This document shows, piece by piece, positions 7,354 through 49,048 of a DNA stretch of 64,000 nucleotides; the stretch's first letter is position 1; every line of letters starts with the position of its first letter. The position numbers were made by a program, and so were the translations under genes. Under the pieces are notes generated by a model. The model made no database searches, was not told the DNA's origin, and worked only from the letters and a program-made list of their open reading frames with translations. Origin of the DNA: Verrucomicrobia bacterium GWF2_51_19 (GTDB lineage Bacteria; Verrucomicrobiota; Verrucomicrobiia; Opitutales; UBA12508). Location: positions 5,608-69,607 of the forward strand of contig MIDP01000011.1 of assembly GCA_001831095.1 (NCBI GenBank), written 5' to 3'.

Positions 7354-7371
7354 CCTGCTTAATAAAGAACT

Positions 7372-7650: not shown

Positions 7651-7659
7651 AAGAATACT

Positions 7660-8079
7660 ATGGACATTGCATCAATCAGTCAAATAACCCCCGATGTCAA
7701 CAAGATCGGGATGGGTTCGTTTGCGCGTGATCTTTTGGGAAGTTTTGAAAAGGCCGATGTGGGCTTTGACCAGGTAATGTCGAAGACAGCCGATGTTGGT
7801 AACGCCCTGGCAAAACCGATTTCGATTGAGGTCAATACAGCCGATGTCAAACAGAAAGCCCCAAGCATTGGTAGTCTCTTTGACGACCTTATTCACTCCG
7901 TTGACGACAAGAGCAAAGAGAGCTCCGAGGCTCTCAAACAGGCTTTCAGCGGGCAATCGTCCAATCTCCACCAGACGATGATCGCCATGCAGGAATCCGA
8001 AGTCGCTTTTACTCTCATGTTGGAAGTCCGCAATAAGCTCGTTGAGGGCTTTCAGGAACTCATGAAGATGAGTGTATAA
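7660..8079 (+). CDS. fliE: flagellar hook-basal body complex protein FliE
   Basis: The C-terminus AMQESEVAFTLMLEVRNKLVEGFQELMKM is typical of FliE. 139 aa is long for FliE, so the true start may be an internal Met. Confidence 0.8.
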   Translation: MDIASISQITPDVNKIGMGSFARDLLGSFEKADVGFDQVMSKTADVGNALAKPISIEVNTADVKQKAPSIGSLFDDLIHSVDDKSKESSEALKQAFSGQSSNLHQTMIAMQESEVAFTLMLEVRNKLVEGFQELMKMSV

Positions 8080-16751: not shown

Positions 16752-16779
16752 TACTAAAATTTCAAAACATCAAAGATAA

Positions 16780-16900
16780 AGAGCGATTCAAAATGCGCCT
16801 ATAGCAAGGCCCGAGGAATGAGGGCGACGGGAGCCTACTTAAGGTAGGTGACCTAGCCCGAACGACGAGAACGCCGCTAGAGGCCATTTTCAATCGCTCT
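16780..16900. repeat. R1 quasi-palindromic repeat (solo copy between flgD and flgE)
   Basis: Sequence agagcgattcaaaatgcgcctatagcaaggcccgagga...gccgctagaggccattttcaatcgctct. The outer arms are complementary. Confidence 0.9.
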
Positions 16901-16913
16901 TCAGAAAGGGAAT

Positions 16914-18911: not shown

Positions 18912-21412
18912 TCAAGAAATACTTTTTGAAATACTGGAGCGTCACCAAAACACTGTTTGCGATAGTTGTAGAGCGGGTCGGTGTCTCTAAACCATTTTTG
19001 GGAAGAACGCCATTCTCTTTCTTTGCCAAGAAGTGCATAGAACGCCGTTAGACGTAAAATATTTGAAGCTCCTTTTGATAATTGATCCAATTGAAGTGGG
19101 TATTTTGAAACATATTGCAACCCTTTCTGCCACAGCGGACCTTCATCAATAAAGGCAGCACTTGTAATCCATGCTAGAAGATTTTGAGCCGACAATGTCT
19201 CTATATTCTCTTGGCGAATGATTGTTTTTGCGAGTGCCGTTTGATTTTGTAATGCCAAAAGGTGCGCTATTCGTGTTGGCAGGGACTCATAATTGCCTTG
19301 CTTAGCTTCTGATAAAACACCTTCTGTCGCCCCATAATTGCGCACGGAAATGAACAACAGCGCTTTTGATACATAAGTCTGAGTGTTGGCGCATTGGGTG
19401 TCAAAGTCGACTTGGAGGACCTCTTGAAGCGCGCTAAAAATCTTTTCCTCGATTGGCTTTAAAGTGTTTTTATATTTAAATAGAGCGGGAAAGAGCTGTT
19501 CGGTTGCAGCCCAAACCGCATTACCTGCGAGGCCGCTTGCCTTTGGATTGGCCTCATAGAGGGCGCGGAGGGCGGTTTTGGCCTTATCGAAGAGGTTTTT
19601 GGCCAAGTAGAAAGAGGGTAATGTGGGTGAGACGATTTTGCGTACAAACCATTCGCGTTCCAGACAGTACAGCACCTTTTCCTCATGGAGAGAGAGGCCC
19701 TGATAGAGGTTGCGCTTTTGAATGGCATCGGCGATTTCGGTATAGAGGCCGTTCGCTCCTGGGAAGTTTTGATAAATGGCATCGATCGACTGTTCAACGA
19801 CCGCCCACTGATTATTGAGGAGCGCGAGGCAGGCTTTCAAAAATTGAGCTTGAGGGCCCTCGTTTTTTTGTACCGATAGAGCGTAGAGTTCAGCCATCTC
19901 TTGTTTGAGCCATTCGACGTCCGGTAAGTGTTTTTGAAGAAAACCATTGGCTGCCGAGAGTCCCATAAACAGCGCAATGCCGACCTGTGCATAGAGCTCG
20001 CCGCGAAAGAGAATGTCTTCGTGCGCGATGGCATCTTTGTTAAACTTCAGCCAGGGCGCATAATGCCGTTGACACAAGTTAAAGTGAATGACCCAAGATG
20101 AATTGCGTTGGGCGTAGAGCGTGTTTCCAGTGTAGTCTTTCAATAATATTTCGACAAATGCGGTGCTCGCGGGTGCCCGTTTCAAGTAATCGAGCAAAAA
20201 GAGGTGAAACGAAAGCCGATAAAAGGGCTGATTGAACGGTCTCTTGATCAACGCCACATCGGTCATGCAGGACTTCCATGATTGAGTAAACAGCCAGAGG
20301 TCGAGGTTGACGTTTTCTGCGCGGTACGTGTTGTGGACCCAGGCACAGCGCTTTTCAGGAATGTCGAGGCTGTCTCCTGTTTCTCTCGCACGCAGGCACG
20401 CTAAAAGGGACTCAATAGACAACGTTTCACGGGGCAAGAGGGCCTTTGTGTCAAAAAGCTGAAAGTCGTTTTTTGACGAATGTTGCGATTCTAGTAACAC
20501 CTTCAGGCGTTCACGAATCGAGAGCTTGTCTTTAGTATTGAAAACATTTTTTGAAAAGTCCAATCCGTGAAGCGTGTTGCGAAAGAGTGAGTATGGGTGC
20601 CAGAAAAAAGACGAAAAAGGCACTTCGCTACGTTTTGCCCACAGGGCTCCTTCGACGGCCCATGTCATGTTTTTACTCAAATTATAAATGGCGCTGGAGG
20701 CTACCATCCGCGCGACAGCCTCTTCCCACGTAACTTTGCCATCCATGAGATCAGCCATGTCGATGACGTCAAAAGCCTCATTGCCCCTTAGCGCGTCAAA
20801 TAGCCGCGTACTGTATTGTCCGTACCAAAAATGCTCTTCGTCAATGTTGTGTTTGTTCTTGTTAAAGAAGTTTTCGATCGAGTAGCTTTCACGTGAATCG
20901 AAGAGCAGACAGGGCTTTTTCGACTCGAAGCTTTTTGAAAGCACCGTGATGTCGTCTGTCGGCAAATAAATAAAGTGTTGAGTAAACGCAAACAGAGCGC
21001 GGAAACAACGAGTACTGTTGCCATTCATTTCAAGTTCTTCCGGAAACAGACTCGTAAAAACGGCATCGGGATAGGCTTGCATTGTGCGTTCTAGAGAGTC
21101 CTCTAAGGTCTGCGGGTGAGTGTCGTAGCTCGTGGCTGACTTTTTCCCTGGCACCTTGTAGACCCTTTCCGGGACAAAGGAAATGACCCAATCGCCTTTG
21201 GCCGATTCCAGGTCCGGCTCCTGCAATAAGGTGTCTACGCGACTGTTCAACCCATGTGCGCGTAGCCAGTCTGCCAGCAAGCTTTTTTGATCGTCAGTCA
21301 ACGTCGGCACAAAGAGCGTTGTTTCGTTGGCGAGCGCCAGCTTTTCAATAAATTTTTGCCAAAAAGGATACGCGTGAACAATCAGGGATTCCGCATCGAG
21401 TAAAATGTGCAT
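18908..21412 (-). CDS. large hypothetical protein (834 aa; helical-repeat-like C-terminal half)
   Basis: Long uninterrupted ORF with normal codon and amino-acid composition. No family motif recognised. Confidence 0.75.
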   Translation of the reverse strand: MHILLDAESLIVHAYPFWQKFIEKLALANETTLFVPTLTDDQKSLLADWLRAHGLNSRVDTLLQEPDLESAKGDWVISFVPERVYKVPGKKSATSYDTHPQTLEDSLERTMQAYPDAVFTSLFPEELEMNGNSTRCFRALFAFTQHFIYLPTDDITVLSKSFESKKPCLLFDSRESYSIENFFNKNKHNIDEEHFWYGQYSTRLFDALRGNEAFDVIDMADLMDGKVTWEEAVARMVASSAIYNLSKNMTWAVEGALWAKRSEVPFSSFFWHPYSLFRNTLHGLDFSKNVFNTKDKLSIRERLKVLLESQHSSKNDFQLFDTKALLPRETLSIESLLACLRARETGDSLDIPEKRCAWVHNTYRAENVNLDLWLFTQSWKSCMTDVALIKRPFNQPFYRLSFHLFLLDYLKRAPASTAFVEILLKDYTGNTLYAQRNSSWVIHFNLCQRHYAPWLKFNKDAIAHEDILFRGELYAQVGIALFMGLSAANGFLQKHLPDVEWLKQEMAELYALSVQKNEGPQAQFLKACLALLNNQWAVVEQSIDAIYQNFPGANGLYTEIADAIQKRNLYQGLSLHEEKVLYCLEREWFVRKIVSPTLPSFYLAKNLFDKAKTALRALYEANPKASGLAGNAVWAATEQLFPALFKYKNTLKPIEEKIFSALQEVLQVDFDTQCANTQTYVSKALLFISVRNYGATEGVLSEAKQGNYESLPTRIAHLLALQNQTALAKTIIRQENIETLSAQNLLAWITSAAFIDEGPLWQKGLQYVSKYPLQLDQLSKGASNILRLTAFYALLGKEREWRSSQKWFRDTDPLYNYRKQCFGDAPVFQKVFLE

Positions 21413-21635
21413 AGCCTACAGTGTAAGTGCTCTCGTCTCAAAGTCAATCGAATCACATAAGACGCCAATTAAATCACTTTTCTTACGCCCGCTCATTGCG
21501 TTGTAAAGTTTCGCCAAAGACTGCACCGCCTGAACTGAATTTTAAAAATGTCTTGGCTTTCTGTTTTTATTCTAAAATATGCATTCTTATGAAAATTAAA
21601 TCTATATCTTTCGTCCACCATTAATAACTGCCCTA

Positions 21636-24804: not shown

Positions 24805-25189
24805 CCGCAATCATTAGCGACCGCAAAAGTTCACCCGCTGAAAATCAAAAATCATCTGATGTTAACTGGAATTGATGTTTTTTCTGACGGATTATTGGTC
24901 CGCGGTGAATGCGTCCGCAGACATACTAACTGCCTTTAGCTCTGCGTGTGGCAACACGCTCTGGATGCGTATACAGAAGTACTAACTCCTTCCAACTCTC
25001 TGCGTGTGGCAACACGCCCTCGATGCGCCGTTAGAGAGCTCGGCGGGTCTATGGAGCTGTTTGTGGCGCACTCCTTATGCCTCCGAGGGCGGCTTTGGTT
25101 GATTTTTTAAAATATCTGATATTGATTGATATTTAAAATATTCATTTTTTGTATTTAATATCCAGTATAGTTTTTAAATAAAAAGTCAA
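24805..25189 (-). ncRNA. candidate outward transcript H3 (leader Y, two S hairpin modules, tail type Z)
   Basis: Minus-strand TTGACT 25189..25184, 14 nt, TATACT 25169..25164. Followed by the core and two GCGTGT-ggca-ACACGC hairpins (around 24949 and 25004). Transcription is inferred. Confidence 0.3.
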
Positions 25190-25217
25190 GCTTTTTCGCA
25201 ATAAATCGTCGAGGCTA

Positions 25218-25486
25218 CCTCGATCCTTAGCGAAATTTCATTACCGCGCATCGGTTTTCCGATGCTCCCTTGAATGCGCCATTACAAGTACTAACTCCAT
25301 CCAACTCTGCGTGTGTCAACACGCCCTCGATGCGCCGTTAGAGAGCTCGGCGGGTCTATGGAGCCTTTTGTGGCGCACTCCTTCTGCTCTCGGAGGCGGC
25401 TTTGGCTGTAAAAACAAGATATTGGAATGGATTTATCGCTGTTTTAGAAAAAAATCTTCAAATATAGTATTTTTATAAAAAGTCAA
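25218..25486 (-). ncRNA. candidate outward transcript H4 (leader X, short tail)
   Basis: Minus-strand TTGACT 25486..25481, 14 nt, TATATT 25466..25461. Followed by the core, GCGTGT-gtca-ACACGC, and GCGCATCGG-tttt-CCGATGCtC. Confidence 0.3.
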
Positions 25487-25569
25487 GCTTTTTCGTAAAA
25501 ATTTTCGGCGCAGCAGAAGCTCTTTTAATATTTACATAATCAAAAAACAATCTCGATTCACTCATTCTA

Positions 25570-26037
25570 GGCTGCAACGAGCTTATGCGCTGCAACTCGA
25601 CGGCTTCGTTTTCGCACGAAGGGTTGCAATGAGCTTATGCGCTGCAACTCGACGGCTTTGATGCCGCATTCTGGGCTGCAACGAGCTTATGTGCTGCAAC
25701 TCGACGGCTTTGATGCCGCATTCTGGGCTGCAACGAGCTTATGTGCTGCAACTCGACGGCTTCGTTTCCGCACGAAGGGTTGCAATGAGCTTATGCGCTG
25801 CAACTCGACGGCTTTGTTTTCGCACGAAGGGTTGCAATGAGCTTATGCGCTGCAACTCGACGGCTTTGTTTCCGCAGTCTGGGCTGCAACGAGCTTATGT
25901 GCTGCAACTCGACGGCTTCGTTTTCGCACGAATGGTTGCAATGAGCTTATGCGCTGCAACTCGACGGCTTCGTTTTCGCACGAATGGTTGCAATGAGCTT
26001 ATGCGCTGCAACTCGACGGCTTTGATGAAGCGTTGGG
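25570..26037. repeat. 52-bp tandem repeat array, 9 units
   Basis: The units start exactly at 25570, 25622, 25674, 25726, 25778, 25830, 25882, 25934 and 25986. The conserved part is gcaaYgagcttatgYgctgcaactcgacggctt. The ~19-nt variable part occurs in only a few recurring variants (cgttttcgcacgaagggtt and tgatgccgcattctgggct types). Confidence 0.97.
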
Positions 26038-26097
26038 CGTTATATAGCTGTGTATGTCGGCACTGAATCTAGCCTCGACGATTTATTGCGAAAAAGC

Positions 26098-26453
26098 TTG
26101 ACTTTTTGTTTAAAAACTATATTAGACATTAAATACAAAAATTTGAATATTTAAAATCCGATATTTTTAAAAAAATCAGCTAAAGCCGCTCTCGAACACA
26201 GAAAGAGTGCGACAACAAGCGGCTCCCTAGACCCGCCGAGCTCTCTAACGGCGCATCCAGGGCGTGTTGTCACACGCAGAGCTTGAGGGAGTTAGTACTT
26301 CTGGAGACGCATTCACCGCAAACCGGTTAAATTTTTAGGAAAGCGTTTTCACTCTTTTGGTGAAATTTACATTAGAGCACACATGACCATGCAGGCGTCA
26401 ATTAGACAGGCAACGCAACTGATATGACTTATTTTTTTGCTAATGATTGAGGG
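26098..26453 (+). ncRNA. candidate outward transcript H5 (leader Y, long tail)
   Basis: TTGACT 26098-26103, 14 nt, TATATT 26118-26123. Followed by the core, GCGTGT-tgtc-ACACGC, the TCACC/GGTGA hairpin and the terminus. Confidence 0.3.
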
Positions 26454-27630
26454 AAATCACCCTCGTTGTCGAGTATTGCTTCCACCCTGGAAGAGTGGAG
26501 TCGTGCGGCGAAGGTTGCGGATTGAGCCAAAAGGCGTGAGAAACACAATCTTTGAAATGGGCTGGCGTTTCCGGCGGAGGAATCGGCGGGAATTTTGTCC
26601 AAGCGAGTTGAAAGAGTGTATTGGGAAGGACGGCAAAAAAAGTTTTGTAAAAATTCCAACTGTCTTGCTGCGTGAAAGCTTGATGCCAGCCAACTCGTCG
26701 ACACCAATGATTAGCCAGGTAGCATTCGGTCTGGGGAAGAAGGCGGCTGGCATCAAGGAGTATTGCCTCTGGAGCTGGTTCAATGCGATTATCGGTGTCC
26801 AATGGGAGAGCCCAATAGGCCCGGAGCGTATCGAGCGGCCCAAACATGACGAAATCAGAGGGATGATAGAGGAGGTACTTCATAGTGTACGCCTCTGGAA
26901 TGAAGAGCCGTGGGCGATCGGAATATTGATTGAGGGCGTCAAAGAGGTCGGTAAAGAGCGATGGACTCAGCGGAATGAGGTCCGTGCGGACCTTCAACGC
27001 ATGCGACCACCCCAAGGTTTGTGCCTTTTCAAACCCCGCGTGCGTGCTGACAATTTGCAGGTTACGATTGCCCCTGCCAGGCGATGGTTTTCGAGACAGA
27101 ACGATGTCGTCGATCCAGGCGTCTGCAGCCTTAAGTATGTCACAGTCAGCATCTTCCCAGGTTGACAAAATCAACTGTATCCCAGCATAGGTCGTTTTCA
27201 AGTAACGCAACAACAACAACGTTTCTTGCTCAACGGATCCCTGCATAACGATACCACAGTCGGCCGACACCGTTTGAGCCTTTGGGTTTTCCAGCTGAAA
27301 ATACAGGGCGTCGGTCAGCGCTAAATCGACCAAATGGGCGGCATTCAACCTCGGAAATCGCTCTGGAATCGCCCTTTCGATTGCCCCAAGCGCGCCAGAA
27401 AAAATCACTACAACCGTGCCATCACCTTCCGCATACAGTCGTTCGGGAGAACTCACCTCGATAGCACCAACACAGCTGTTCCAAAGCGTCGCATCACTGT
27501 CGACACAATACGCAAGGGGGACATTTACGTCCCCCTTCAGTGCTTCAAATAAAGACCCGACGCCCCAGCCGACAAACTTTTTAGCCGTCTTCAGCGTGGA
27601 TGCTAGCTGTTGGCCTTTTTTACTTTTCAA
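26440..27630 (-). CDS. hypothetical protein, possibly WavE-like LPS/glycan biosynthesis protein
   Basis: 396-aa ORF. The central/C-terminal region (ILSTWEDAD, GNRNLQIVSTHAG, ALKVRTD, YHPSDFVMFG) resembles my recollection of the WavE family (tentative). The last 4 codons and the TAG stop lie inside the A2 terminal repeat. Confidence 0.6.
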   Translation of the reverse strand: MKSKKGQQLASTLKTAKKFVGWGVGSLFEALKGDVNVPLAYCVDSDATLWNSCVGAIEVSSPERLYAEGDGTVVVIFSGALGAIERAIPERFPRLNAAHLVDLALTDALYFQLENPKAQTVSADCGIVMQGSVEQETLLLLRYLKTTYAGIQLILSTWEDADCDILKAADAWIDDIVLSRKPSPGRGNRNLQIVSTHAGFEKAQTLGWSHALKVRTDLIPLSPSLFTDLFDALNQYSDRPRLFIPEAYTMKYLLYHPSDFVMFGPLDTLRAYWALPLDTDNRIEPAPEAILLDASRLLPQTECYLANHWCRRVGWHQAFTQQDSWNFYKTFFAVLPNTLFQLAWTKFPPIPPPETPAHFKDCVSHAFWLNPQPSPHDSTLPGWKQYSTTRVISLNH

Positions 27631-27643
27631 AATGGCCTCTAAC

Positions 27644-28525
27644 TTATTTTTGAGCGGGCGCTTGAGTCGGTTGTTCCGCTGGCTTGGCAGGCTCGGCTAC
27701 GGGTGCAACGACATCCGCTGGCTTGGCAGGCTCGGCTACGGGTGCAACGACATCCGCTGGCTTAGCAACTTCCGCTGGCTTAGCAACTTCCGCTGGCTTA
27801 GCAACTTCCGCTGGCTTAGCAACTTCCGCTGGCTTAGCAACATCCGCTGGCTTAGCAGGCTCGACAACGGGTGTTGCTACCTCGGCGGGCTTCTCAGGAG
27901 CTGCTGTGGTTGGCGCTTCATCCTTAGTTTCAGGCGCAACCGCGATTATCGTTTCAGGCTGGTACAGCTTTTCTACCTCTGCAATGATTTTTATGGAATG
28001 CGTGCCGCAACCCACGATATATTCTTTGTTGCCATTTTTGACGAGCTTGACAAAGGACATTTTTTCGGTCGGTTTGTTGTCTCCAGGCTTGACCCACATG
28101 TACTTGACCCAAGCTTCACCACGGGCGTCCGTCTTAACCTTTCGATTCATCTCGGCGATAAAGTAATTGCCTTTGACGTCCCGAAGCTTGTTAGATTCAC
28201 GTCCTTCGAGCTTTGGCTTGACAGGATGCATGACAAAAAGACCGTCCGGGCTGTGAATCCAAATGTAGGTTCCACTGAAAATGAATGAGCTGTCTTTCCC
28301 TCTGAATTTCGGAAAAGCCGCCTCGCCCTCTTTCTCAATAAGGACCGCGCCCTCTCTCACCTTTTGCGTGATGAGGTCAGCGCTGATGGAGTCATTCTCT
28401 GTCGCGACGCATTTAGCTGAGCTCTCTTCTGCCAGATCATCGACATTGGTAGCCCTGAGGTAGGCAAAAGAGGTTAATCCGAGCAATATAGCTCCGGCCA
28501 ATAAATAAGGTCTGAATTTTTCCAT
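27644..28525 (-). CDS. secreted single-Cache-domain protein with repetitive PAEVAK / PADVVAPVAEPAK C-terminal tail
   Basis: 293 aa with a signal peptide (LLAGAILLGLTSFA). The Cache-like core is FIFSGTYIWIHSPDGLFVMHPVKPKLEGRESNKLRDVKGNYF...EAWVKYMWVKPG. The proline-rich tandem tail is encoded by the repeats at 27676-27861. Confidence 0.75.
   Translation of the reverse strand: MEKFRPYLLAGAILLGLTSFAYLRATNVDDLAEESSAKCVATENDSISADLITQKVREGAVLIEKEGEAAFPKFRGKDSSFIFSGTYIWIHSPDGLFVMHPVKPKLEGRESNKLRDVKGNYFIAEMNRKVKTDARGEAWVKYMWVKPGDNKPTEKMSFVKLVKNGNKEYIVGCGTHSIKIIAEVEKLYQPETIIAVAPETKDEAPTTAAPEKPAEVATPVVEPAKPADVAKPAEVAKPAEVAKPAEVAKPAEVAKPADVVAPVAEPAKPADVVAPVAEPAKPAEQPTQAPAQK
27676..27861. repeat. in-frame coding tandem repeats (2 x 39 bp, then about 6 x 18 bp)
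   Basis: ccgctggcttggcaggctcggctacgggtgcaacgacat appears twice (27676-27753), followed by ccgctggcttagcaactt units from 27754. Confidence 0.95.
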
Positions 28526-28608: not shown

Positions 28609-28929
28609 TCAATCATTAGCGACATTTTATTACCGCGCATCGGTTTTCCGATGCGCCCTGGATGCGCCTACAGAAGTACTAACTCCCTCCAACTCTGCGT
28701 GTAACAACACGCCCTGGATGTGCTTTGAATCTATCCGCCTACAGCTCTGCGTGTGGCAACACGCCCTGGATGCGCCGTTAGAGAGCTCGGCGGGTCTAGG
28801 GAGCCGTTGGTGGCGCACTCCTTCAGTCTCCGAGAGCGGATTTTGCTGTAAAAAAACAAGATATTTGAATGGATTTGTCGCTGTTTTTAGAAAGGAATCT
28901 TTAAATATAGTATTTTTATAAAAAGTCAA
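28609..28929 (-). ncRNA. candidate outward transcript H6 (leader X, two S modules, short tail)
   Basis: Minus-strand TTGACT 28929..28924, 14 nt, TATATT 28909..28904. Followed by the core, hairpins GCGTGT-ggca-ACACGC and GCGTGT-aaca-ACACGC, and GCGCATCGG-tttt-CCGATGCGC. Confidence 0.3.
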
Positions 28930-29105
28930 GCTTTTTCGTGTTTTTTTTGCGCTGCGGTATAACTGATCTTGGTGCGTAATTCACAAAGAATAATCTCGAT
29001 TCCCGCATACCAGGCCGCAGCCAACTTATACGCTATAGCTCGACGGACTTGATGCTGCATTGGGCGTTATATGCTATGTATGTCGGCCCTGAATTTAGCC
29101 TCGAC
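28609..29105. repeat. A-element copy A3, truncated (one half-unit plus central region, interrupted by A4)
   Basis: Left terminus tCAATCATTAGCGA at 28609-28622. The central region ends ...gaatttagcctcgac at 29105, directly abutting the terminus of A4. The Y-side half-unit is missing. Confidence 0.85.
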
Positions 29106-29468
29106 CTCAATCATTAGCGAAAAATAAGTCATATCGGTTGCGTTGCCTGTCTAATTGACGCCTGTATGGTCATGTGTGCTCTAATGTAAATTTCACCAAA
29201 TGGTGAAAACGCTTTCCTAAAAATTTAACCGGTTTGCGGTGAATGCGTCTCCAGAAGTACTAACTCCCTCAAGCTCTGCGTGTGACAACACGCCCTCGAT
29301 GCGCCGTTAGAGAGCTCGGCGAGTCTAGGGAGCTGTTGGTGTCGCACTCCTTCTGGGCCCGAAAGCGGCTTTGGATGATTTTAAAAAAAATATCGGATAT
29401 TGATGATGATTTTAAATATTCAAATTTTTGTATTTAATATCCAATATGGTTTTTAAACAAAAAGTCAA
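29106..29468 (-). ncRNA. candidate outward transcript H7 (leader Y, long tail)
   Basis: Minus-strand TTGACT 29468..29463, 14 nt, CATATT 29448..29443. Followed by the core, GCGTGT-gaca-ACACGC and the long tail. Confidence 0.3.
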
Positions 29469-29543
29469 GCTTTTTCGCAATAAATCGTCGAGGCTAGATT
29501 CAGTGCCGACATACACAGCTATATAACGCCCAACGCAGCATCA

Positions 29544-29795
29544 AAGCCGTCGAGTTGCAGCGCATAAGCTCATTGCAACCCTTCGTGCGAAAACGAAGCC
29601 GTCGAATTGCAGCGCATAAGCTGCATGTAGCCCAGAATGCGGCATCAAAGCCGTCGAATTGCAGCGCATAAGCTGCATGTAGCCCAGAATGCGGCATCAA
29701 AGCCGTCGAGTTGCAGCGCATAAGCTGCATGTAGCCCAGAATGCGGCATCAAAGCCGTCGAGTTGCAGCGCATAAGCTCGTTGCAGCCCAGAATG
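29544..29795. repeat. 52-bp tandem repeat array, about 5 units (inverted relative to 25570-26037)
   Basis: aagccgtcga(g/a)ttgcagcgcataagc recurs at 29544, 29596, 29648, 29700 and 29752, with exact 52-bp spacing. Three units carry a private variant ctgcatgtagcc. Confidence 0.95.
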
Positions 29796-29873
29796 CGGGA
29801 ATCGAGATTGTTTTTTTGGATTATGTAAATATTAAAAGAGCTTCTGCCGCGCCGAAAATTTTTACGAAAAAGC

Positions 29874-30146
29874 TTGACTTTTTATAAAAATACTATAATC
29901 GAGTATCTTATCTAAAAACAGCGATAAATCAATTCCAATATCTTGTTTTTACAGCCAAAGCCGCTCTCGAAGGCTGAAGGAGTGCGCCACAAAAGGCTCC
30001 CGAGACCCGCCGAGCTCTCTAACGGCGCATCGAGGGCGTGTTGACACACGCAGAGTTGGATGGAGTCAATACTTGTAATGAAATGATGCATCCAGTGCGC
30101 ATCGAAAAACCGATTCGCGGGCAAAAAATTTCGCTAATGATTGAGG
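29874..30146 (+). ncRNA. candidate outward transcript H8 (leader X, short tail)
   Basis: TTGACT 29874-29879, 14 nt, TATAAT 29894-29899. Followed by the core, GCGTGT-tgac-ACACGC, and a degenerate terminal hairpin. Confidence 0.3.
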
Positions 30147-30208
30147 GTGATTCAGCGTTGCTGATTTTTTTATTGACGGGCATGGCAAATAATTGAGTAA
30201 TGCTAAGT

Positions 30209-31830: not shown

Positions 31831-32389
31831 AGAGATCTTCGGTTTTCTTCTGTTCTGTAGGTATTCCCGATAGGTCCATTTGGGCGATGAGGAGTATATT
31901 GAGCACGTCCTTGAGGTCGCTGGATTCGCATTCGAGGGCATGGGTCTTTTGGTTGAGCGACATCATCAGTGTTTTGAAGGACGCTGAGAGCTGTTGAGAA
32001 AAGAATTTCAGTTCGCGCTCGACGTTGAAAAAGGACTTCGGTGGATGGATTTCGCATTCCGCATAGGCCTTTTGGATGGGAACCAAGATGTCGGCAGAAA
32101 GTTCGGCTATATCGTGTGAGGCTTGGATGAGGTTTTCGACCGCGTTGATAAACGGTCCCATATTTTGGAGCAAAGATTTGATCCGGATGGACGATTCACG
32201 GATTTGGTCCTTGGTCAATGGGTGAATGCGAACCAATTCATCGCGTTCATCGGCAATTGCTTTCGCTAACAGGGCATCTTTTTCTTTGTCTTCCATGACA
32301 GCTCTCTCCGTTGAGGTTTGATACTGCATACATCGACATGGATAGGGAAAACATAAGCCAAAAGTTCCTCGCGAAATGAGAATTTTCAC
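31829..32389 (-). CDS. hypothetical protein (helical)
   Basis: 186-aa ORF. A likelier start is Met at 32296 (MEDKEKDALLAK...). No family recognised. Confidence 0.55.
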   Translation of the reverse strand: MKILISRGTFGLCFPYPCRCMQYQTSTERAVMEDKEKDALLAKAIADERDELVRIHPLTKDQIRESSIRIKSLLQNMGPFINAVENLIQASHDIAELSADILVPIQKAYAECEIHPPKSFFNVERELKFFSQQLSASFKTLMMSLNQKTHALECESSDLKDVLNILLIAQMDLSGIPTEQKKTEDL

Positions 32390-32395
32390 CTAAAA

Positions 32396-32512
32396 AGACC
32401 GCTTCAAAAGGGTCTCCAGGCCCGAGGAGCGAGGGCGACAGGAGCGTACGTTGGTACGTGACTTAGCCCGAACGACGAGAACGCCGCTAGAGGCCATTTT
32501 CAAGCGGTCTTT
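32396..32512. repeat. R1 quasi-palindromic repeat (solo copy)
   Basis: Sequence aagaccgcttcaaaagggtctccaggcccgaggagcgagggcgacagg...gccgctagaggccattttcaagcggtctt. Lies in the divergent region upstream of lptD. Confidence 0.88.
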
Positions 32513-36390: not shown

Positions 36391-36575
36391 CGGCGTTCTT
36401 CCCGCAGGCGCTTTATGTCGTTGTTATTCATCTAGTTAGCTCAAAGACCTGGGCGAAATGGATGCAAAAATGTGGCTTTGCGCGAGTACGATCTGCCGTA
36501 GCGTACATAAACGTACGTGAGGCAGTCGACGGAGAGCGAAACGCATTTTGGCGCCATTTCACCCAGGTCTTTGGG
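36385..36575 (-). repeat. R2-linker-(R1 remnant) composite repeat (C4)
   Basis: On the minus strand it starts directly after the stop (36576-36578) of ORF 36576..37310. The R1 remnant tctagcggcgttct contains the nrnA stop codon. Confidence 0.85.
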
Positions 36576-37310: not shown

Positions 37311-37340
37311 CTTCTTATTGATTGTGGTTCAAATCACAAT

Positions 37341-37657
37341 AATCATTAGCGAAAAACAAGTCATACCGACCGCTTCCCATTTCTAATTGAGGCTTACATG
37401 GTCATGTGTGCTCTAATTTAAATTTCACCAAATGGTGAAATCGACTTCCTGAATTTTTAACCGGTCCGCGTCTGCAAGACTCCCTCGATGCGCCATTGGA
37501 GAGATTGACGGATCTATGGAGCCGTTTGTGGCGCACTCCTTCTGTATCCGAGAGCGGCTTTGGCTGATTTTTTAAAAAATATTGGATATTGATGAGGGTT
37601 TTAAATATTTATTTTTTTGTATTTAATGTCTAATATAGTTTTAAAACAAAAAGTCAA
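37341..37657 (-). ncRNA. candidate outward transcript H9 (leader Y, long tail, diverged core)
   Basis: Minus-strand TTGACT 37657..37652, 14 nt, TATATT 37637..37632. The core carries several substitutions, including a compensatory G-C to A-T change in the CGCCG/CGGCG stem. Confidence 0.3.
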
Positions 37658-37906
37658 GCTTTTTCGCAATAAATCAGAGATACCAGATTCATAGTCGAAA
37701 GGCACAATGCCATAACGCCCAACGCAGCATCAAAGTCGTCGAGTTGCAGCACATAAGCTCGTTGCAGCCCGGCGTGCGGAAACAAAGCTGTCTAGCTATA
37801 ACGCCCAAGCTAGTTGCAGCCTAGTACAAGAGAATCGAGATTGTTTTTGTGGATTATGTAAATATTAAAAGAGCTTTTGCCTCGCCGAAAATTTTTACGA
37901 AAAAGC

Positions 37907-38171
37907 TTGACTTTTTATAAAAATACTATAGTCGAGTATTTTATCTAAAAACAGCGACAAATCCATTTCAAGCTCTTGTTTTTACAGCCATAGCCGCTCT
38001 CGGATGTAGAAGGAGTGCGCCATCAAAGGCTTCCTAGACCCGCCGAGCTCTCTAACGGCGCATCGAGGGCGTGTTGACACACGCAGAGTTGGATGGAGTT
38101 GGTACTTGTAATGGCGCATTCAAGGGAGCATCGGAAAACCGATGCGCGGTAATAAAATTTCGCTAATGATT
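37907..38171 (+). ncRNA. candidate outward transcript H10 (leader X, short tail)
   Basis: TTGACT 37907-37912, 14 nt, TATAGT 37927-37932. Followed by the core, GCGTGT-tgac-ACACGC, and the hairpin GaGCATCGG-aaaa-CCGATGCGC. Confidence 0.3.
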
Positions 38172-38415
38172 GTGGTTCAAATCACAACAATGCATTGAAT
38201 ATGGGGATTGTTTTTGTTGACAATAACGTTTCTATTTTTACTCTGCCTTCTTGAGTTAAGTGCTTGTGTCGCATCTTTTTACATTACATCTCCGCTCGCT
38301 ACCACTCTTTTCGTCCGAGTGTTGCACTTCATTGTTTAATTGGCGTGAGGTACATGCGGTACGTGACTTAGCTCGAACGACGAGAGCGCCGCTACCAATT
38401 TTGCCAATGTCTTTT

Positions 38416-39378
38416 TTATGTTAGGAAGTTGTAGAGCTTCCGTGTCATCACCTCAGCCGTAGCGTTTTTGAGAATGTAGGCATAGCCTCTTTCTGCAATG
38501 GCCTGCCGTTCTTCTGGATGGGCTAAATAATAGCGAATTTTGTCTTCTAAATCTTTACCGCCCTCAGAGCAGACGACGCCGTCAAGGAGGCCTTTTTCGG
38601 ACTCGGGAATGCGGTCCGTGATCAGAAACCCCTTACAGGCGAGCACTTCGATGATGCGCAGATTGAGGGCCCCCATATTGACGCTGTCTTGGAGCGTAAA
38701 GTTCAAATTGACGCGCGTGTTGCTGTAAAGAATGGGCACTTTATCTTGGTCAATCTTGCCTGTGGCGATTTTCGCCAACTTGCGCTGATACGATTTTCGC
38801 CAAAAGAGAAAGGTATTTTTTAGTTTTTTCCTCAAACTCCAGCGCTTCCAGTTGCCAAAAAGCCCCAATTTAAACTGGGTTGCAGGCATGAGATAAAGCG
38901 TTGTCCGCTCTTCGCCCTTGATGTCGTTGCCAACATAGGAACAGTCGAACGCGTATGCCGGATCGGCTGCACGCGGATAAAAGTGTTCGGTATCTACTCC
39001 GAAAGGCAAATAGATGGCAGGTTCCGGTCTTTGAAGCGATTGGTGCAAATGCAGAAGGGATTCGGCGTGAAAGAGGTAGCCGTCAAAATGCATATTGTAG
39101 AGGCTTTGCAGGACATTATGGCCGCCGTCGCCCATGCCATTTTGCAGGTAAAAGATGTGTTTTTTCGCCCAGGCGTGGTTGGGGACCACAATGTTCATGT
39201 AAATCATGACGTCGAGTGGCTCTTGAGGCAAGTGATCGGGCGCGTACAAATCGGCCTCTACGCCCGGGTAGCGATTGAGGTATTTGATGCACGACAGGCT
39301 CAAAAGCTCTTCGCCAATCACATTGCGTTTGGCGTCCAATGATCCACGATTCCATGCTAGGCAAAATCCAATTTTCAT
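38416..39378 (-). CDS. glycosyltransferase, CgeB/Glyco_trans_1_2-like
   Basis: The C-terminal region LNLRIIEVLACKGFLITDR...LEDKIRYYLAHPEERQAIAERGY resembles the CgeB-type GT domain. The start was moved to ATG 39378 (MKIGFCLAW), 4 nt after the cysS stop. The track start at 39474 would overlap cysS. Confidence 0.7.
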   Translation of the reverse strand: MKIGFCLAWNRGSLDAKRNVIGEELLSLSCIKYLNRYPGVEADLYAPDHLPQEPLDVMIYMNIVVPNHAWAKKHIFYLQNGMGDGGHNVLQSLYNMHFDGYLFHAESLLHLHQSLQRPEPAIYLPFGVDTEHFYPRAADPAYAFDCSYVGNDIKGEERTTLYLMPATQFKLGLFGNWKRWSLRKKLKNTFLFWRKSYQRKLAKIATGKIDQDKVPILYSNTRVNLNFTLQDSVNMGALNLRIIEVLACKGFLITDRIPESEKGLLDGVVCSEGGKDLEDKIRYYLAHPEERQAIAERGYAYILKNATAEVMTRKLYNFLT

Positions 39379-39382
39379 TTTA

Positions 39383-40768
39383 TTAAAGTTTGACAAGATT
39401 AAATGAATCCTTGCCGTCGAGCATTTGCCAGCCGAGGGACTGGATTTGGGCGCGGAGGGAGTCCGCGAGGGCAAAGTCTTTTGCTTGTTTGGCTTGCCAG
39501 CGTTGGTGAGCGAGTTGGAGGACGGCTTCCGGGGCAGATTGAGGGGCTGCCATCTTGAATCCGAAGAGAAAGAGCAGGGCGCGGAATTCGTGGATTAAGC
39601 CAGGAGTGTCGAGGTCCACTTGAGGCAGAGAGGAGAATAGCTCGCCGAGTGCCTGTGGTGTGTTCATGTCATTTTGAATGGCTTCCCAGGTGGGCTTAAA
39701 GACGTTCCACTGTGTAAACGGAAATGTGGGTGAGGTGTTGATTTGGGAGAGCTCTGTCCGCGTATGTTCAAGTAGCTTGTGGGCAAACTTCTCAATGCGT
39801 GACAGCGCACTTTGAGCGGCGCCCAGGCTGTCGAGCGTGAAGTTGAGCGGCTGCGAATAATGGCCGGAGAGCAACAGATAGCGCACAGAGTCTGTGGAAA
39901 AGCCTTGTTTTTCAAGATCTTCGAGCGTATAGAGGTTGCCGAGGCTCTTTGACATTTTCTTGCCATCAACCGTCAGGTGAGTCGTGTGAAACCAATGCCG
40001 GACAAAGGGCTTGCCCGTGGCACCTTCGGACTGGGCGATTTCGTTTTCGTGGTGCGGGAAAATGAGGTCGATGCCGCCGCCGTGGAGGTTAAAGGTTTCG
40101 CCGAGGTAATGCATGGACATAGCGCTGCACTCGATGTGCCAGCCGGGGCGTCCTTTTCCCCATGGACTTTCCCAAAAAACGTCACCGTCGTCAGCCTTGT
40201 GCGCCTTCCAGAGGGCAAAATCGCGGACGTTATCGCGGTCGTACTCGTCGACGTCGTTGACGTGGCCAGCGCTGTTCGTCGACTGCGTCCGGAGATTTTC
40301 CGGGCTAAGTTGGGTGAGTTTACCATAATCCTTGTAGGCGGCAACGCGGAAGTAGACAGAGCCATTCTCTACGTACGCCAGGCCGCGTTCGATCAATTTT
40401 TGAATCAGCTGAATCTGCTGAACGATGTGGTCCGTCGCGCGCGGTTGCTGGTGCGGCGAGAGCAGGTTGAGCTTGTTGCAGTCGTCGAGGAAGCGCTGCG
40501 TCCATTGCTCGGTAAACTTTTTGAGAGACAGGCCCGCTTGCTGTGAGCGCAGAATGGTCTTGTCATCGACGTCTGTGATGTTGCGCACGTGGACGGGCGC
40601 GTAACCAGCGAGTTCGAGGGCTCTGCGGAGGACATCTTGCAAAATAAAGGTCCGGAAGTTCCCAATGTGCGCCGGGCCATAGACCGTTGGACCGCAGCAA
40701 TAAAAGCCAAAGGGCTTTTCCCTGGAAAGTTCCTTGATCTGCCGCGTCAATGTGTCCTTCAAAAACAT
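39383..40768 (-). CDS. cysS: cysteine--tRNA ligase
   Basis: Class I HIGH motif (PAHIGNFRT) and KMSKS motif (KMSKSLGN). 461 aa. Confidence 0.96.
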
Positions 40769-40914
40769 GCCTCAGAGTACATCAACCGAGCCAAAAAAGT
40801 CAAGTTTTAGCGCCCGGCGATTTCACAAAATCAAACCTTAACGATCGAGCAGAAACCTCACTCTAAGGGTGCAAAACGTTGCACTTCATTGTTTCACTGA
40901 CGACGGTGAGCGAA

Positions 40915-41883: not shown

Positions 41884-42032
41884 CGGTCTTTCCTTTCGTG
41901 TAAGTTGTTAATGCGCAAAAGACCTATGATAAATGTTCTCAAAGTTTGACTTTGCGCGAACACAACCTGGCGTAGCGTACATAGACGTACTTGAGACAGT
42001 CGTCGCAGAGAAAAACGAGCTTTCACGGCATT
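41772..42032 (-). repeat. R2-linker-R1 composite repeat (C5)
   Basis: On the minus strand R2 begins inside the last 5 codons of the OleA-like gene and supplies its TGA (42025..42023). The R1 part is 41772-41895. Confidence 0.9.
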
Positions 42033-43081
42033 TTGCATAAATCTCTTCCAGGAAAGTATTCTAGCGCCAACATGAGTGAGCTGAGTCCGCTGCCAATGCC
42101 GAGCAGGGCGATCTTTTCGCTGACATCGAGGGCCTTCGATTCGAGTGATTTGGCCAGCGTAATGGGCAGAGAAGCCGACCCGATGTTGCCCAGGAGGGTG
42201 AATGTCGAAAAGTCTTTGGAAATGTCGAGTGAGAGGGCCTCGTAGAGGCGCCTGAGGTGCTGCTTGCCGACCTGGTGGCAGATGATGCGTGACGGCGTCA
42301 ATTCATTCCAGCCAGATGTCTTTTTAAACTTGTTCCAAGCTCGTTTGGCGACCTGTATGCCAGCCTCCAGTAGTTCCTCTGCGTGCGTCTGCATGGCGAG
42401 GCCATCCTCGTCGCTCCCCTCGCAGAGATCATTGACACTCGTATCGGTCTCGACGCAGGCATTTAGAATCGACAGGGCCGGCTTTGGGGCTAAATCTTTG
42501 TGTGTGATCATGGCCGCAACGGCGCCTGCCCCAATGGTCAAATTGGCGAAAAACGGCTTGATTTGCTTGCGCGAAAGGTGAGGCTTGAGGAGCTCTTTAA
42601 GCGTCCACTCCTGTAATGGCCGGCCATTTTCTCCAGAAACGATCAGCGCCGACTGGATTTGGCCACTCTCGATCATGCCAGCCGCGAGCACCATGGCGTT
42701 TAAAAAGCCCAAACAGGCGTTGGAGACGTCGAGGATTTGCGTGCGGCTCGTCAATTGCAGGTTTTTGTGGACATAGGCGGCCGTTGATGGCTCGACGCGA
42801 TCGCGGCAAACAGACGCATTGATGAGCATGTCAACCTTGTCCCGAGAGACGCCACTGATGTCAAACAGCTTTTCGGCGGCCAGAGAGGCGGCCTTCGACG
42901 GCTTCAACGACTTTGGCCAAAATCGGCGCTCGAGAATGCCCGTCATGAGCTCCAATCGCCCAAATGGCAACTTCAAACGCTCATAGAGCGGCGCCAACAC
43001 CATTTCGACGGCGGCTGATGTCCACGTCTCCGCTGGCAACTCATAGGCAATGGATTCAATGACTACATTTAAAAACTTCAT
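42023..43081 (-). CDS. 3-oxoacyl-ACP synthase III family thiolase, OleA-like
   Basis: Active-site Cys context VSNACLGFLNAM, His context ICHQVGKQH, and Asn context LGNIGSASLPITL...IALLGIGSGLSS. The start was chosen at ATG 43081 (MKFLNVVIESIAYELP), which overlaps the fabI end by 26 nt. Confidence 0.8.
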   Translation of the reverse strand: MKFLNVVIESIAYELPAETWTSAAVEMVLAPLYERLKLPFGRLELMTGILERRFWPKSLKPSKAASLAAEKLFDISGVSRDKVDMLINASVCRDRVEPSTAAYVHKNLQLTSRTQILDVSNACLGFLNAMVLAAGMIESGQIQSALIVSGENGRPLQEWTLKELLKPHLSRKQIKPFFANLTIGAGAVAAMITHKDLAPKPALSILNACVETDTSVNDLCEGSDEDGLAMQTHAEELLEAGIQVAKRAWNKFKKTSGWNELTPSRIICHQVGKQHLRRLYEALSLDISKDFSTFTLLGNIGSASLPITLAKSLESKALDVSEKIALLGIGSGLSSLMLALEYFPGRDLCKMP

Positions 43082-43879: not shown

Positions 43880-44088
43880 GCCCACCGCGCTCTCGTCGTT
43901 CGGGCCTTGCCGTTCATTGTTTCAACAGTCTTACTTCTTGTAAGTTGTTCATTTGCAAAGACCGATGTAAAAATGGATGTAAAAATGTGGCTTTGCGCGA
44001 GTACGATCTGCCGTAGCGTACATAGAGGTACGTGAGGCAGACGGCGCAGCGCGAAACGCATTTTTGCGCCATTTTACATTGGTCTTAT
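43880..44088 (-). repeat. R2-linker-(R1 remnant) composite repeat (C6)
   Basis: On the minus strand it starts directly after the fabZ stop (44088-44090). The R1 part has an internal deletion. Confidence 0.85.
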
Positions 44089-47388: not shown

Positions 47389-47481
47389 CCTCAATCATTA
47401 GCGAAATTTTATTACTGCGCATCGGTTTTCCGATGTGCTCTGGAATTAAACCTCACACTCCGCGTGTGACAACACCCCCTG
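47389..47481 (-). repeat. A-element terminal fragment
   Basis: CCTCAATCATTAGCGA (47389-47404), GCGCATCGG-tttt-CCGATGtGC, and a degenerate S hairpin. Homology then breaks into an R2 remnant. Confidence 0.85.
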
Positions 47482-47499
47482 AAAGGTCTAGAGAGTCGT

Positions 47500-47557
47500 T
47501 CCGACGCGAGCCGACAAGCCTCGCGAAACACATTTTTGCGCTATTTTGCACTGGTTT
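47500..47557 (-). repeat. R2 5-prime fragment
   Basis: The minus-strand sequence aaaaccagtgcaaaatagcgcaaaaatgtgtttcgcgagg begins right after the pntAA stop (47558-47560). Confidence 0.75.
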
Positions 47558-48679
47558 TTAGTGAAACTTTTCGTGGACGACATTGCCGTTGTGCGTAATC
47601 AGACACTGTTTGAGGAAGTCATCCGATGGCGAAAGGTTAACCTGTTTGGTTTCCTTGGACCAAAAATGTTCAAGGAAGTTGGTAAGGTTGGATGAAAACA
47701 TCTGCGTGGCGTGATTAGGGAGGTTGCCCTCGGCATTTCCGATACCGAGAATGCGGACGCCGTTTGGCAGTGTAACGACTTCGTTGAGCCGAGAGCCTTC
47801 GACGTTGCCACCGCTTTCGACGGCGAGGTCGATGACGATGGATCCCGTTTGCATGACGTCGAGCATGGCCCGTGTGATGAGTGTTGGCGCCTTTCTGCCA
47901 AAAACCTTGGCAGTCGTGATGACGACGTCTGATTGCGAGCAAACCTTTGCCATGGCGTCACGTTGCTTTTGGATCTGTTCGGGCGTGAGCTGTTGTGCGT
48001 AACCCTGGGCGGTTTGGCCAGTGTCGCCGAGATCGATCTTCACAAAACGGGCGCCTAGAGACTTCACTTGCTCTTCGACGACCGACCGTGTATCAAAGGC
48101 TTCGACGCGCGCCCCGAGGCGTTTGGCTGTCGCAATGGCCTGCAGCCCAGCTACACCGACGCCGACAATGAAATATCGAGCTGGTTGGAGCGTTCCAGCG
48201 GGTGTCATCATCATGGGCAGCACCTTATTGAGTTCTGTGGCGGAACGGAGGACGGCGTAATAGCCAGCGAGGTTGGCCTGCGAGCTGAGGACGTCCATCT
48301 TTTGAGCCAAGGTTGTTCGCGGAATCATCTCCAAACTGACGGCCGAAATCTTTGCTGCAGCCAAGGCCTGCAATAGTTCTTTCTCATTAAATGGGTCCAA
48401 AAAGCTGAGTTGCCACGTACCAGGCTGCATCAGGGCTATGTCTTCATGGCTCGGCTTGTTGATGCGCAAAACGACGTTGGCCGCTCTTAGGGCTTCCGCG
48501 CGGCTTGAGCAGACAACGGCCCCCATGGCCTCGTAAGCGGCGTCAGGGAAGTCGCTCTTCGCTCCCAATCCCGCTTCAATAGAGACCTCCAATCCTAGGA
48601 CTTTGAGTTTTTTAACACCCTGAGGGTCCAACGCGGCCCGCGTCTCCTGACCCATTTCTTTTGGAACAAATACGTGCAT
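47558..48679 (-). CDS. pntAA: NAD(P) transhydrogenase subunit alpha part 1 (PntAA)
   Basis: 373 aa with IEAGLGAKSDFPDAAYEAMGA, MDVLSSQANLAGY, VGVGVAGLQAIATAKRLGARVEAFD and VIDLAVESGGN. No pntAB or pntB is adjacent. Confidence 0.85.
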   Translation of the reverse strand: MHVFVPKEMGQETRAALDPQGVKKLKVLGLEVSIEAGLGAKSDFPDAAYEAMGAVVCSSRAEALRAANVVLRINKPSHEDIALMQPGTWQLSFLDPFNEKELLQALAAAKISAVSLEMIPRTTLAQKMDVLSSQANLAGYYAVLRSATELNKVLPMMMTPAGTLQPARYFIVGVGVAGLQAIATAKRLGARVEAFDTRSVVEEQVKSLGARFVKIDLGDTGQTAQGYAQQLTPEQIQKQRDAMAKVCSQSDVVITTAKVFGRKAPTLITRAMLDVMQTGSIVIDLAVESGGNVEGSRLNEVVTLPNGVRILGIGNAEGNLPNHATQMFSSNLTNFLEHFWSKETKQVNLSPSDDFLKQCLITHNGNVVHEKFH

Positions 48680-48704
48680 ACAGCTAAAAAGTTACCATCT
48701 TTTT

Positions 48705-48878
48705 TGAAAATGCAAAGCAAAATCATCTGATGTTAAATTGTATTGATGTTTTTTCACAGCCAAAGCCGCTCTCGGATGTAGAAGGAGTGCGCCACAAACA
48801 GCTCCATAGACCCGCCGAGCTCTTCCGGGGCGCATCGGAAAACCGATGCGCAGTAATAAAATTTCGTTAAGGATTGAG
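48705..48878 (+). repeat. A-element fragment (Z segment, core, short tail, degenerate terminus)
   Basis: Sequence aaaatcatctgatgttaaattgtattgatgtttttt, then the core (ccgctctcggatgtagaaggagtgcgccac...), then GCGCATCGG-aaaa-CCGATGCGC, then tcgTtaAGgattgag. There is no TTGACT box. Confidence 0.85.
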
Positions 48879-49048
48879 TGTAATATGGTTCTTGAAGCAT
48901 TCCGCATTGCCTTTTAGAAAAGATTGGCCAATATTTGCTTTTGTTTGGAAGGAATATCTTTTCAAATAAACGCAAAATAAATGTGGGCAGGGCCTGTTTG
49001 TCATGCCGAGTGGGTCAAGGGGCGAGAAACCCACAGTTAAGGAGATTT

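Follow-up and report, generated by a model that had tools for sequence, protein, structure and literature searches.

The window analysed here, a 64,000-nt stretch of the Opitutae metagenome-assembled genome (MAG) GWF2_51_19, is ordinary chromosome carrying ligA, cysS, priA, glyA, rsmE and genes for flagella and fatty-acid synthesis. A single repeat family covers ~8% of it, and 4 of the 8 element ends in the window face a gene start. The feature under study, at 29874–30146 on the + strand, is one of ten boxed half-units of this family (arm H8), which we take to be probably an arm of a non-autonomous DNA transposon. An earlier note on this DNA had described each half-unit as an outward-firing transcription unit encoding a hairpin-rich RNA that ends at the element terminus.

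Arm H8 and its invariant box

As listed below, arm H8 extends from a promoter-like box to a terminal inverted repeat (TIR).

29865–29883, + strand: invariant box CGAAAAAGCTTGACTTTTT, with TTGACT at 29874–29879; ~100% conserved in 44–45 copies
29894–29899, + strand: -10-like hexamer TATAAT, 14 nt after TTGACT
29900–29955, + strand: X-type leader, AT-rich, with the A/U hairpin AAAAACAG...CTTGTTTTT
29956–30035, + strand: conserved core, made of AGCCGC, a hypervariable segment of 11–13 nt and GAAGGAGTGCGCCAC..GACCCGCCGAGCTCTCTAACGGCGCATC
30008–30012 and 30023–30027, + strand: CGCCG/CGGCG stem in the core
30036–30096, + strand: M module, starting with the hairpin GCGTGT-TGAC-ACACGC (30036–30051)
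30097–30146, + strand: short tail, with the imperfect hairpin GCGCATCG-AAAAA-CGATTCGC, then the TIR
30129–30146, + strand: TIR TTTCGCTAATGATTGAGG, the end of arm H8

The 15-nt heart of the box, AAAGCTTGACTTTTT, has 10 matches in the window with 0 mismatches, where shuffled sequences predict 0.36; an eleventh match, at 40808 and with 1 mismatch, is the cysS promoter. The ten agree in position and strand with the half-units reported by the earlier note, whose account of their geometry also stood. In all of them, TTGACT is followed by 14 nt and a TATAAT-like hexamer (TATATT four times, TATAAC twice, and TATAAT, TATACT, CATATT and TATAGT once each); the alignment confirms that the spacer keeps its length although its sequence differs at several positions between the X and Y leader types; and every box is oriented toward the nearest TCGCTAATGATTGAGG terminus, the distance from box to element end being 230–400 bp.

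Box and 14-nt-spaced hexamer also occur in ~35 further copies from the same MAG, where the hexamer shows per-position conservation of T.83, A.94, T.89, A.91, W and T.77, and where the positions directly 3′ of it vary. This per-position count, the module alignments and the comparison of hypervariable segments with their flanks were based on copies outside the window; the comparison of spacers and box distances, the counts of the GCGTGT/GCGTCT hairpin alleles and the split between private and shared variants included the window copies.

Private mutations amount to ~1% per site everywhere and to 0.5–0.7% in the box. Variants shared at the level of subfamilies, in contrast, reach 4–37% elsewhere and only 0–0.5% in the box, which is the sole interior sequence kept by all propagating lineages. 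Conservation sets in ~10 nt upstream of the box and extends downstream, and the centre of the elements is poorly conserved. Read directly from the sequence, the box is an imperfect palindrome, AAAAAG-N5-CTTTTT. Because it is invariant across subfamilies, it is probably a functional cis element needed by the family, either an outward promoter or a protein-binding site.

When the ten half-units were aligned together with a box-less fragment at 48700–48879, a common arm plan became visible: box, X or Y leader, core, optional modules, tail and terminus. The M module (56–58 nt) follows the core in 0, 1 or 2 tandem copies, depending on the arm; the tail is either short or long, with sub-modules of the long tail duplicated in some copies; and the core is much more conserved than the adjoining segments. 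A canonical element consists of an X arm and a Y arm, inverted around a centre of 0–8 copies of a 52-nt tandem repeat. It is because of this repeat that the box-to-box distances (185–189, 233–240, 285–293, 367, 396 and 602 bp) form the series ~185 + n × 52, with n = 0 to 8. Both leader types, X and Y, were found joined to the short as well as to the long tail. The module junctions, as read from the alignment, have GCGCATC(C/G)AGGGCG in common, plausibly a slippage site. Enrichment of GCGCAT as a separate signal was rejected, as it merely mirrors the repeat units.

Ends, copies and distribution of the elements

The following elements and fragments were mapped in the window:

4468–5195: element A, X arm H1 (− strand, long tail) and Y arm H2 (+ strand, short tail), with the flanking duplication ATTTTTG(C/A)
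24806–26455: composite B, solo Y arm H3 (− strand), X arm H4 (− strand) and Y arm H5 (+ strand)
28610–29104, − strand: truncated element C1, comprising X arm H6 (two M modules) and a partial centre
29105–30146: full element C2, Y arm H7 (− strand, long tail), centre and X arm H8 (+ strand)
37337–38175: element D, Y arm H9 (− strand, long tail) and X arm H10 (+ strand, short tail)
47389–47470, − strand: terminus and short-tail fragment
48700–48879, + strand: arm fragment without box, consisting of core, short tail and terminus

The window elements, and those at 14 loci elsewhere, are bounded by TIRs of 16–18 bp, the left one reading CCTCAATCATTAGCGAAA and the right one the complement, with CCTCAATCATTAGCGA and TCGCTAATGATTGAGG as the terminal sequences of element ends. 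Among 16 end pairs compared for a target-site duplication of 8 bp, six were identical at 8/8 (TTTTATTC, TAAAGACG, GCATACTA, TCTTACAA, AAGTCAAA and GCAAGTTC), two agreed at 7/8 (including element A), one agreed at 6/8 and one had a 9-bp duplication. None of 240 non-cognate control pairings reached 8/8.

The same TIRs also bound other sequences, found at loci outside the window (numbered L004–L027; L024 and L025 come from the Opitutia MAG JAYPDO01). In the GWF2_51_19 genome, they delimit a 45-bp pair of back-to-back termini (L011, 8446–8493), a 180-bp derivative that holds one centre-type unit and no box (L014, 5579–5758) and a one-armed element of 454 bp whose 8-bp duplication is perfect (L004, 1236–1689). 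In JAYPDO01 (L024, 1–55; L025, 801–1049), they (CCTCAATCATTAGGGAA ... TTTCGCTAATGATTGAGG) bound an unrelated, box-less, non-coding element of ~250 bp, which has an outward TTGACTT ~35 nt from its right end; both contigs terminate within the element. Since one TIR bounds unrelated, miniature and one-armed elements alike, it is the TIR that determines mobility, box and core being contents of the interior.

No conserved open reading frame (ORF) lies inside the elements, and the module lengths are not multiples of 3. A coding role for an antisense frame that stays open through the core was rejected upon inspection, as its variable codons alter amino acids and 1-nt indels occur. The domain scan covered the ORFs of the window, including every ORF adjoining an element, and the ORFs at the scanned loci; no transposase or mobility domain was detected in either set, nor was a transposase found beside the solo termini at the loci. 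One ORF of locus L020 (313–1302, − strand), downstream of a degenerate terminus-like sequence, encodes a 329-aa secreted protein with two HNH-like motifs (HHIIP..WWN). It was rejected as a transposase, being secreted and looking like a toxin or nuclease.

At least ~46 distinct arm copies, on many contigs, were counted in one Opitutae genome. A degenerate core pattern, built to match 11/11 window copies, found 18 loci in JGI metagenome data, and because their flanking genes belong to the same MAG, all ~46 copies are paralogues within one genome. The pattern had 0 matches in 185,579 GTDB species representatives and 0 in viral contigs; a blastn search with the whole of element D (37338–38176) gave 0 matches in plasmids. 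A TIR pattern matched, in GTDB, the related Opitutia MAG JAYPDO01 and three presumably chance sites, with no cognate autonomous insertion sequence (IS) among these matches, and it had no match in viral contigs. A literature search on the TIR sequence returned nothing relevant. No empty sites were recovered from other assemblies, all of which break inside the repeats.

Several elements depart from the simple plan. C1 abuts the left terminus of C2, whose centre consists of 52-nt tandem repeats (29521–29832). In composite B, which has ~9.5 copies of the repeat in its centre (25518–26089), the solo Y arm abuts the terminus of another arm. The ENA assembly k141_638636 leaves the window arrangement after 25207 (L027 from 6389), H3 being followed by a normal centre and an X arm, while the JGI contig Ga0209417_1002177 matches the window beyond that point. 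As these two independent assemblies disagree, part of the arrangement of B may reflect population (strain) variation or misassembly in the repeats.

Element D is flanked, instead of by 8 bp, by a perfect 19-bp direct repeat, ATTGTGGTTCAAATCACAA (37318–37340 and 38168–38190). The 17-bp direct repeat ATTTAGCGTAATAGGTC flanking an element in L020 (7930–8700) resembles this case. Finally, an alanine dehydrogenase gene (47558–48679, − strand) lies between a left terminus (47392) and a right terminus (48876). The segment, 47389–48879, is thus bounded by TIRs and has no 8-bp duplication; it could represent gene capture, a composite or a rearrangement.

Promoter features and RNA folding

The readable DNA of the GWF2_51_19 genome, 211 kb, was the basis for the searches for host promoters and for an autonomous partner. 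In this DNA, TTGACT is the host -35 consensus. The cysS promoter (window 40768–40808, − strand, TTGACT at 40803) reads TTGACT-N18-TACTCT, with the ATG 6 nt past the -10 hexamer, and TTGACT in the box is flanked by A and T tracts just as it is there. Other host-like promoters precede the gene starting at 21412 (21412–21447, − strand) and a tRNA gene in L015 (3060–3117, − strand; TTGACT-N16-TAGATT). Host promoters apparently follow the form TTGACT-N16-18-TAnnnT, with very short leaders. Outside the boxes, matches to TTGAC(A/T)-Nx-TAnWnT peak at x = 16–18, with 5, 4 and 4 occurrences (13 in total).

A standard sigma-70 scan did not call the box. Its hexamers are near consensus (TTGACT invariant, -10 positions at 77–94%), while the 14-nt spacer falls outside 17 ± 1–2 nt. 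The earlier note had itself cautioned that this spacer is short, and rightly so: host-like promoters use 16–18 nt, which weakens the promoter guess. It had also said that no canonical intrinsic terminator follows, and indeed there is none at the element termini. A weak terminator-like hairpin occurs inside the long tail. Another, TCAGC-GTT-GCTGA followed by T7 (30152–30175, + strand), stands 6 nt outside the right terminus of H8 and element C, in an intergenic region between divergent genes, at which no + strand gene terminates.

Judging from the sequence, it is reasonable, though unproven, to read this invariant box with its non-canonical spacer as marking an outward transcription unit. What survives of the proposal that the arm is transcribed to its terminus is the orientation of the units, the promoter-like box with the -35 of the host, and the terminus as a true mobile-element end, with TIR and 8-bp duplication; the spacer and the folding of the RNA do not agree with it.

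Indeed, whole-arm folds were not better than dinucleotide shuffles on either strand (z-scores of -0.76 and -0.26 for sense, -0.91 and -0.79 for antisense). RNAalifold applied to 45 cores gave -9.1 kcal/mol (covariation term -0.49) and 1 compensatory cell of 720, and covariation in the core by pair counting was indistinguishable from that of shuffles (0.139 vs 0.144 ± 0.006). Alignments of the M module, the short tail and the long tail contained three small hairpins only, with the stems GCGTGT/ACACGC, ATCGG/CCGAT and TTCACC/GGTGAA invariant and 0 compensatory cells in the module hairpins on the outward (sense) strand.

The individual hairpins that had been taken as signs of selection on secondary structure fared unevenly. 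GCGTGT-NNNN-ACACGC with varying loops is present in nine window copies, as described. The flip to GCGTCT reported for H1 and H9 is a real pattern, although H9 is mismatched (GAGTCT/AGACGC). In 40 copies, we counted 25 GCGTGT-TGNC-ACACGC and 15 GCGTCT-TGC-AGACGC alleles, with no intermediates; since the two alleles go strictly with different downstream modules, the flip counts as one event. It is also strand-symmetric, so that a DNA hairpin would fit equally well. The change from G-C to A-T in the CGCCG/CGGCG stem of H9 exists, but in that single copy: among the 45 cores, 11 and 5 others have G-U and 5 have outright mismatches. The perfect 9-bp hairpin ascribed to the short tail is found in H2, H6 and the fragment at 48821, while H4 and H10 have one mismatch and H8 has two, none compensated; in several copies, H8 included, this hairpin is decaying. 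With covariation at the level of shuffles, and stems either invariant or decaying uncompensated in the enlarged alignment, the claim of selection on structure found no statistical support.

Variable columns showed no strand asymmetry of substitutions (C>T 14 vs G>A 13). Searches of Rfam 15 gave 0 matches at the gathering score, and at E ≤ 1 only STnc150, with 23 bits against a threshold of 60. The analogy with guide RNAs did no better. The hypervariable 11–13-nt segment is unrelated to the copy's own flank (mean longest match 4.26 nt, vs 4.20 ± 0.12 for shuffled pairings), for which the guide-RNA idea was rejected, and no TnpB, IscB or IS110 recombinase domain was present in the scanned ORFs of the window, with all element neighbours, or of the loci. 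It is unlikely that the arm specifies a particular structured RNA; its local hairpins are motifs conserved in sequence, which might just as well work as DNA.

Interpretation and comparison with known systems

With a probability of roughly 0.7, we read H8 as an arm belonging to a family of DNA transposons that are non-autonomous and lineage-specific, similar to miniature inverted-repeat transposable elements (MITEs) but large (0.45–1.65 kb). The family, large modular MITE-like elements in an Opitutae MAG, is new; its kind is already known. A DDE-type transposase encoded elsewhere would mobilise the elements in trans. Canonical elements would consist of two inverted arms around a centre of ~185 + n × 52 bp, slippage at short direct repeats, GCGCATCSAGGGCG for example, might add or remove modules, and recombination between inverted cores may have reshuffled the arms, because all combinations of X or Y leader and short or long tail exist. 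Our best guess is that the box would recruit host RNA polymerase, as an outward promoter of unusual geometry or as a poised or weak one, because TTGACT is the host -35 consensus, stands between A/T tracts as in cysS and is followed by a TATAAT-like hexamer. The transcript would be an unstructured read-out, as at the ends of many ISs and MITEs.

A number of points weigh against this reading. MITEs are usually shorter than ~500 bp, while the full elements measure 728–1650 bp (the 45-, 180- and 454-bp derivatives alone are small); such a size, together with a long, highly conserved interior, is atypical for MITEs, and a purely selfish model leaves the conservation of the core unexplained. Elements B, C and D, which are composite, have no clean 8-bp duplications; D has the 19-bp direct repeat. 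An autonomous partner or transposase with these TIRs was absent from the 211 kb of genome examined. The spacer of the box is always 14 nt, not the 16–18 nt of host-like promoters, and N14 outside the boxes is not enriched (2 matches, vs ~1.5 per other spacer length). Moreover, the 19-nt box is conserved far beyond the need of a -35 element, and more tightly than the hexamer, and its palindromic shape fits a protein-binding site. Two features stand out as unexplained, namely that the box never varies between subfamilies and that the core is so strongly conserved in sequence.

The box might indeed be a DNA site for a protein (a subterminal or internal transposase site or enhancer, or a site for a nucleoid protein or a repressor) rather than a promoter, with the TATA-like hexamer merely part of a conserved AT-rich stretch. 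We regard this as possible, if somewhat unlikely. It would suit a box in which 19/19 positions are essentially invariant, beyond promoter need and next to 77–94% in the hexamer, which forms an inverted repeat and has a spacing wrong for sigma-70; invariance between subfamilies would be expected of a site needed for propagation. The sequence ATT(A)GCGAAAAA is weakly common to the box and the long-tail terminus, but with 8 comparisons made, the best of which gave p = 0.018, this similarity to the TIR is no more than marginal, and the notion of the box as an internal TIR copy was rejected. Since there are same-TIR elements without a box, an element end does not depend on it. The box also lies hundreds of base pairs from the ends, and TTGACT between A and T tracts has the look of a real host promoter, that of cysS. 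Still another function, which we find very improbable, would make boxes and cores the recombination sites of a DNA switch, with the inverted arms flanking an invertible or recombining centre. The arms are inverted, with a variable centre between them, and either leader type can be joined to either tail, as inversion between cores would give; ordinary homologous recombination, however, accounts for the shuffling, no invertase or recombinase gene was found among the scanned ORFs nearby, and inversion would change nothing obvious, because both orientations put an outward box on both sides.

In a fuller version of the model of the earlier note, each arm is a small-RNA (sRNA) gene spread by transposition, whose active outward promoter yields a functional, hairpin-rich RNA of 190–350 nt, perhaps with an antisense or guide-like role, that extends to the element end or past it, as do the omega-RNAs of TnpB/IscB or the RNA-OUT of IS10. 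We consider it unlikely. The geometry of box and hexamer is fixed across two leader types, conservation starts abruptly ~10 nt before the box and continues downstream while the centre varies, and the variable positions just past the hexamer are reminiscent of a start site. The core is far more conserved than its neighbours, stems are kept while a loop base varies, two stem alleles exist without intermediates in 40 copies, and most changes in the CGCCG stem yield G-U in the outward sense. All the same, the spacer differs from that of the host, the z-scores (-0.26 to -0.91) are no better in sense than in antisense, and covariation equals that of shuffles (1/720 compensatory cells), with the other module hairpins invariant or decaying uncompensated. 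Nor is there a strand bias among substitutions (14 vs 13 columns), an Rfam family even at E ≤ 1, a terminator at the end, a variable segment related to the flank, or, among the scanned ORFs, a nuclease or recombinase partner gene nearby; and the TIRs and target duplications are unlike the IS200/IS605 or IS110 style. Slimmer still is the chance that the box is a real outward promoter of 14-nt geometry, perhaps served by a special sigma factor or activator, and produces a sequence-conserved, largely unstructured RNA for the spread or control of the element. Were it true, the RNA could inhibit an unseen transposase (by an antisense or multicopy effect) or act guide-like across the end, and we would be looking at a MITE that carries and spreads a regulatory RNA gene in duplicate.

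Known systems help to place the transposon reading. Promoters inside a transposon that fire toward its nearest end are exemplified by pOUT of IS10, which gives RNA-OUT, and by the outward -35 hexamers at IS ends. They sit only tens of bp from the end, with a spacer of normal length, and the elements that carry them, unlike the present ones, encode a transposase; RNA-OUT acts as an antisense RNA to the transposase mRNA, a target with no known counterpart in our elements. The omega-RNAs of TnpB/IscB and the bridge RNA of IS110 are likewise non-coding RNAs beside a transposon end, directed toward or across it, though by analogy only: these systems have a nuclease or recombinase gene, a structure supported by covariation and Rfam models, none of which was found here, and their families have no TIR/8-bp-duplication architecture. 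The resemblance to transposon guide RNAs fails every test run.

Pneumococcal BOX elements are said to consist of boxA, a variable number of boxB, and boxC. Compared by description, they are similar in the variable count of an internal tandem module (~45–58 nt), the intergenic location and the hairpins predicted if transcribed; they differ in that neither a TIR nor a target duplication is clear in them and that they lack a conserved promoter box, and they come from unrelated organisms. Along with such modular repeats, the closest systems are MITEs with outward promoters, namely Correia elements (CREE/NEMIS, Neisseria) and MITEAba12, a bacterial MITE of Acinetobacter (PMC6382973). Like the present elements, these are non-coding, multi-copy and intergenic, with TIRs and target duplications, and are mobilised in trans, as ours presumably are; they also have outward promoter elements, comparable to the putative promoter box, and RNA hairpins arising from inverted repeats. 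In contrast, our elements are 3–10 times longer, carry the promoter-like box 230–400 bp inside each end and not in the TIR, combine two long arms in inverted orientation with a centre of tandem repeats, duplicate 8 bp of target (TA for Correia), and share no sequence similarity with them.

The window holds a second repeat family of ~120–130 bp, with AAGACC...GGTCTT inverted ends and two subtypes, one with GGTAGGTGACTTAGCCCGAACGACGAGAACGCCGCTAGAGG (7350–7660, 16779–16906, 32330–32511, 36456–36571, 38358–38416, 41930–42045 and 43971–44086; also L007, 10300–10440). It is probably another MITE family, unrelated to the box elements, and its presence makes the genome very rich in repeats. Further repeats of ~140–230 bp occur in or next to arms (L005, 1–225; L021, 14385–14472, − strand; L014, ~4560–4800, − strand; L018, 590–730; window 38230–38350); one such inserted segment, ...CACGTGTTGCACTTCGTACTTGAACTTGC, immediately precedes an X box. 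Several repeat families together form a mosaic in the intergenic DNA. Inside the ORF of a Cache-domain protein (27644–28525, − strand), ~8 units of the 18-nt tandem repeat ACTTCCGCTGGCTTAGCA (27732–27875) would translate into a hexapeptide repeat.

Should the box be silent, what remains is still a repeat family that breaks every assembly of this MAG and risks being mis-annotated as sRNA genes. If it fires, dozens of outward promoters would be scattered in a small genome, and a transposon family would be rewiring transcription in a poorly known phylum. The invariance of the box is a clean signal that interior sequence, besides the TIRs, matters to a non-autonomous element.

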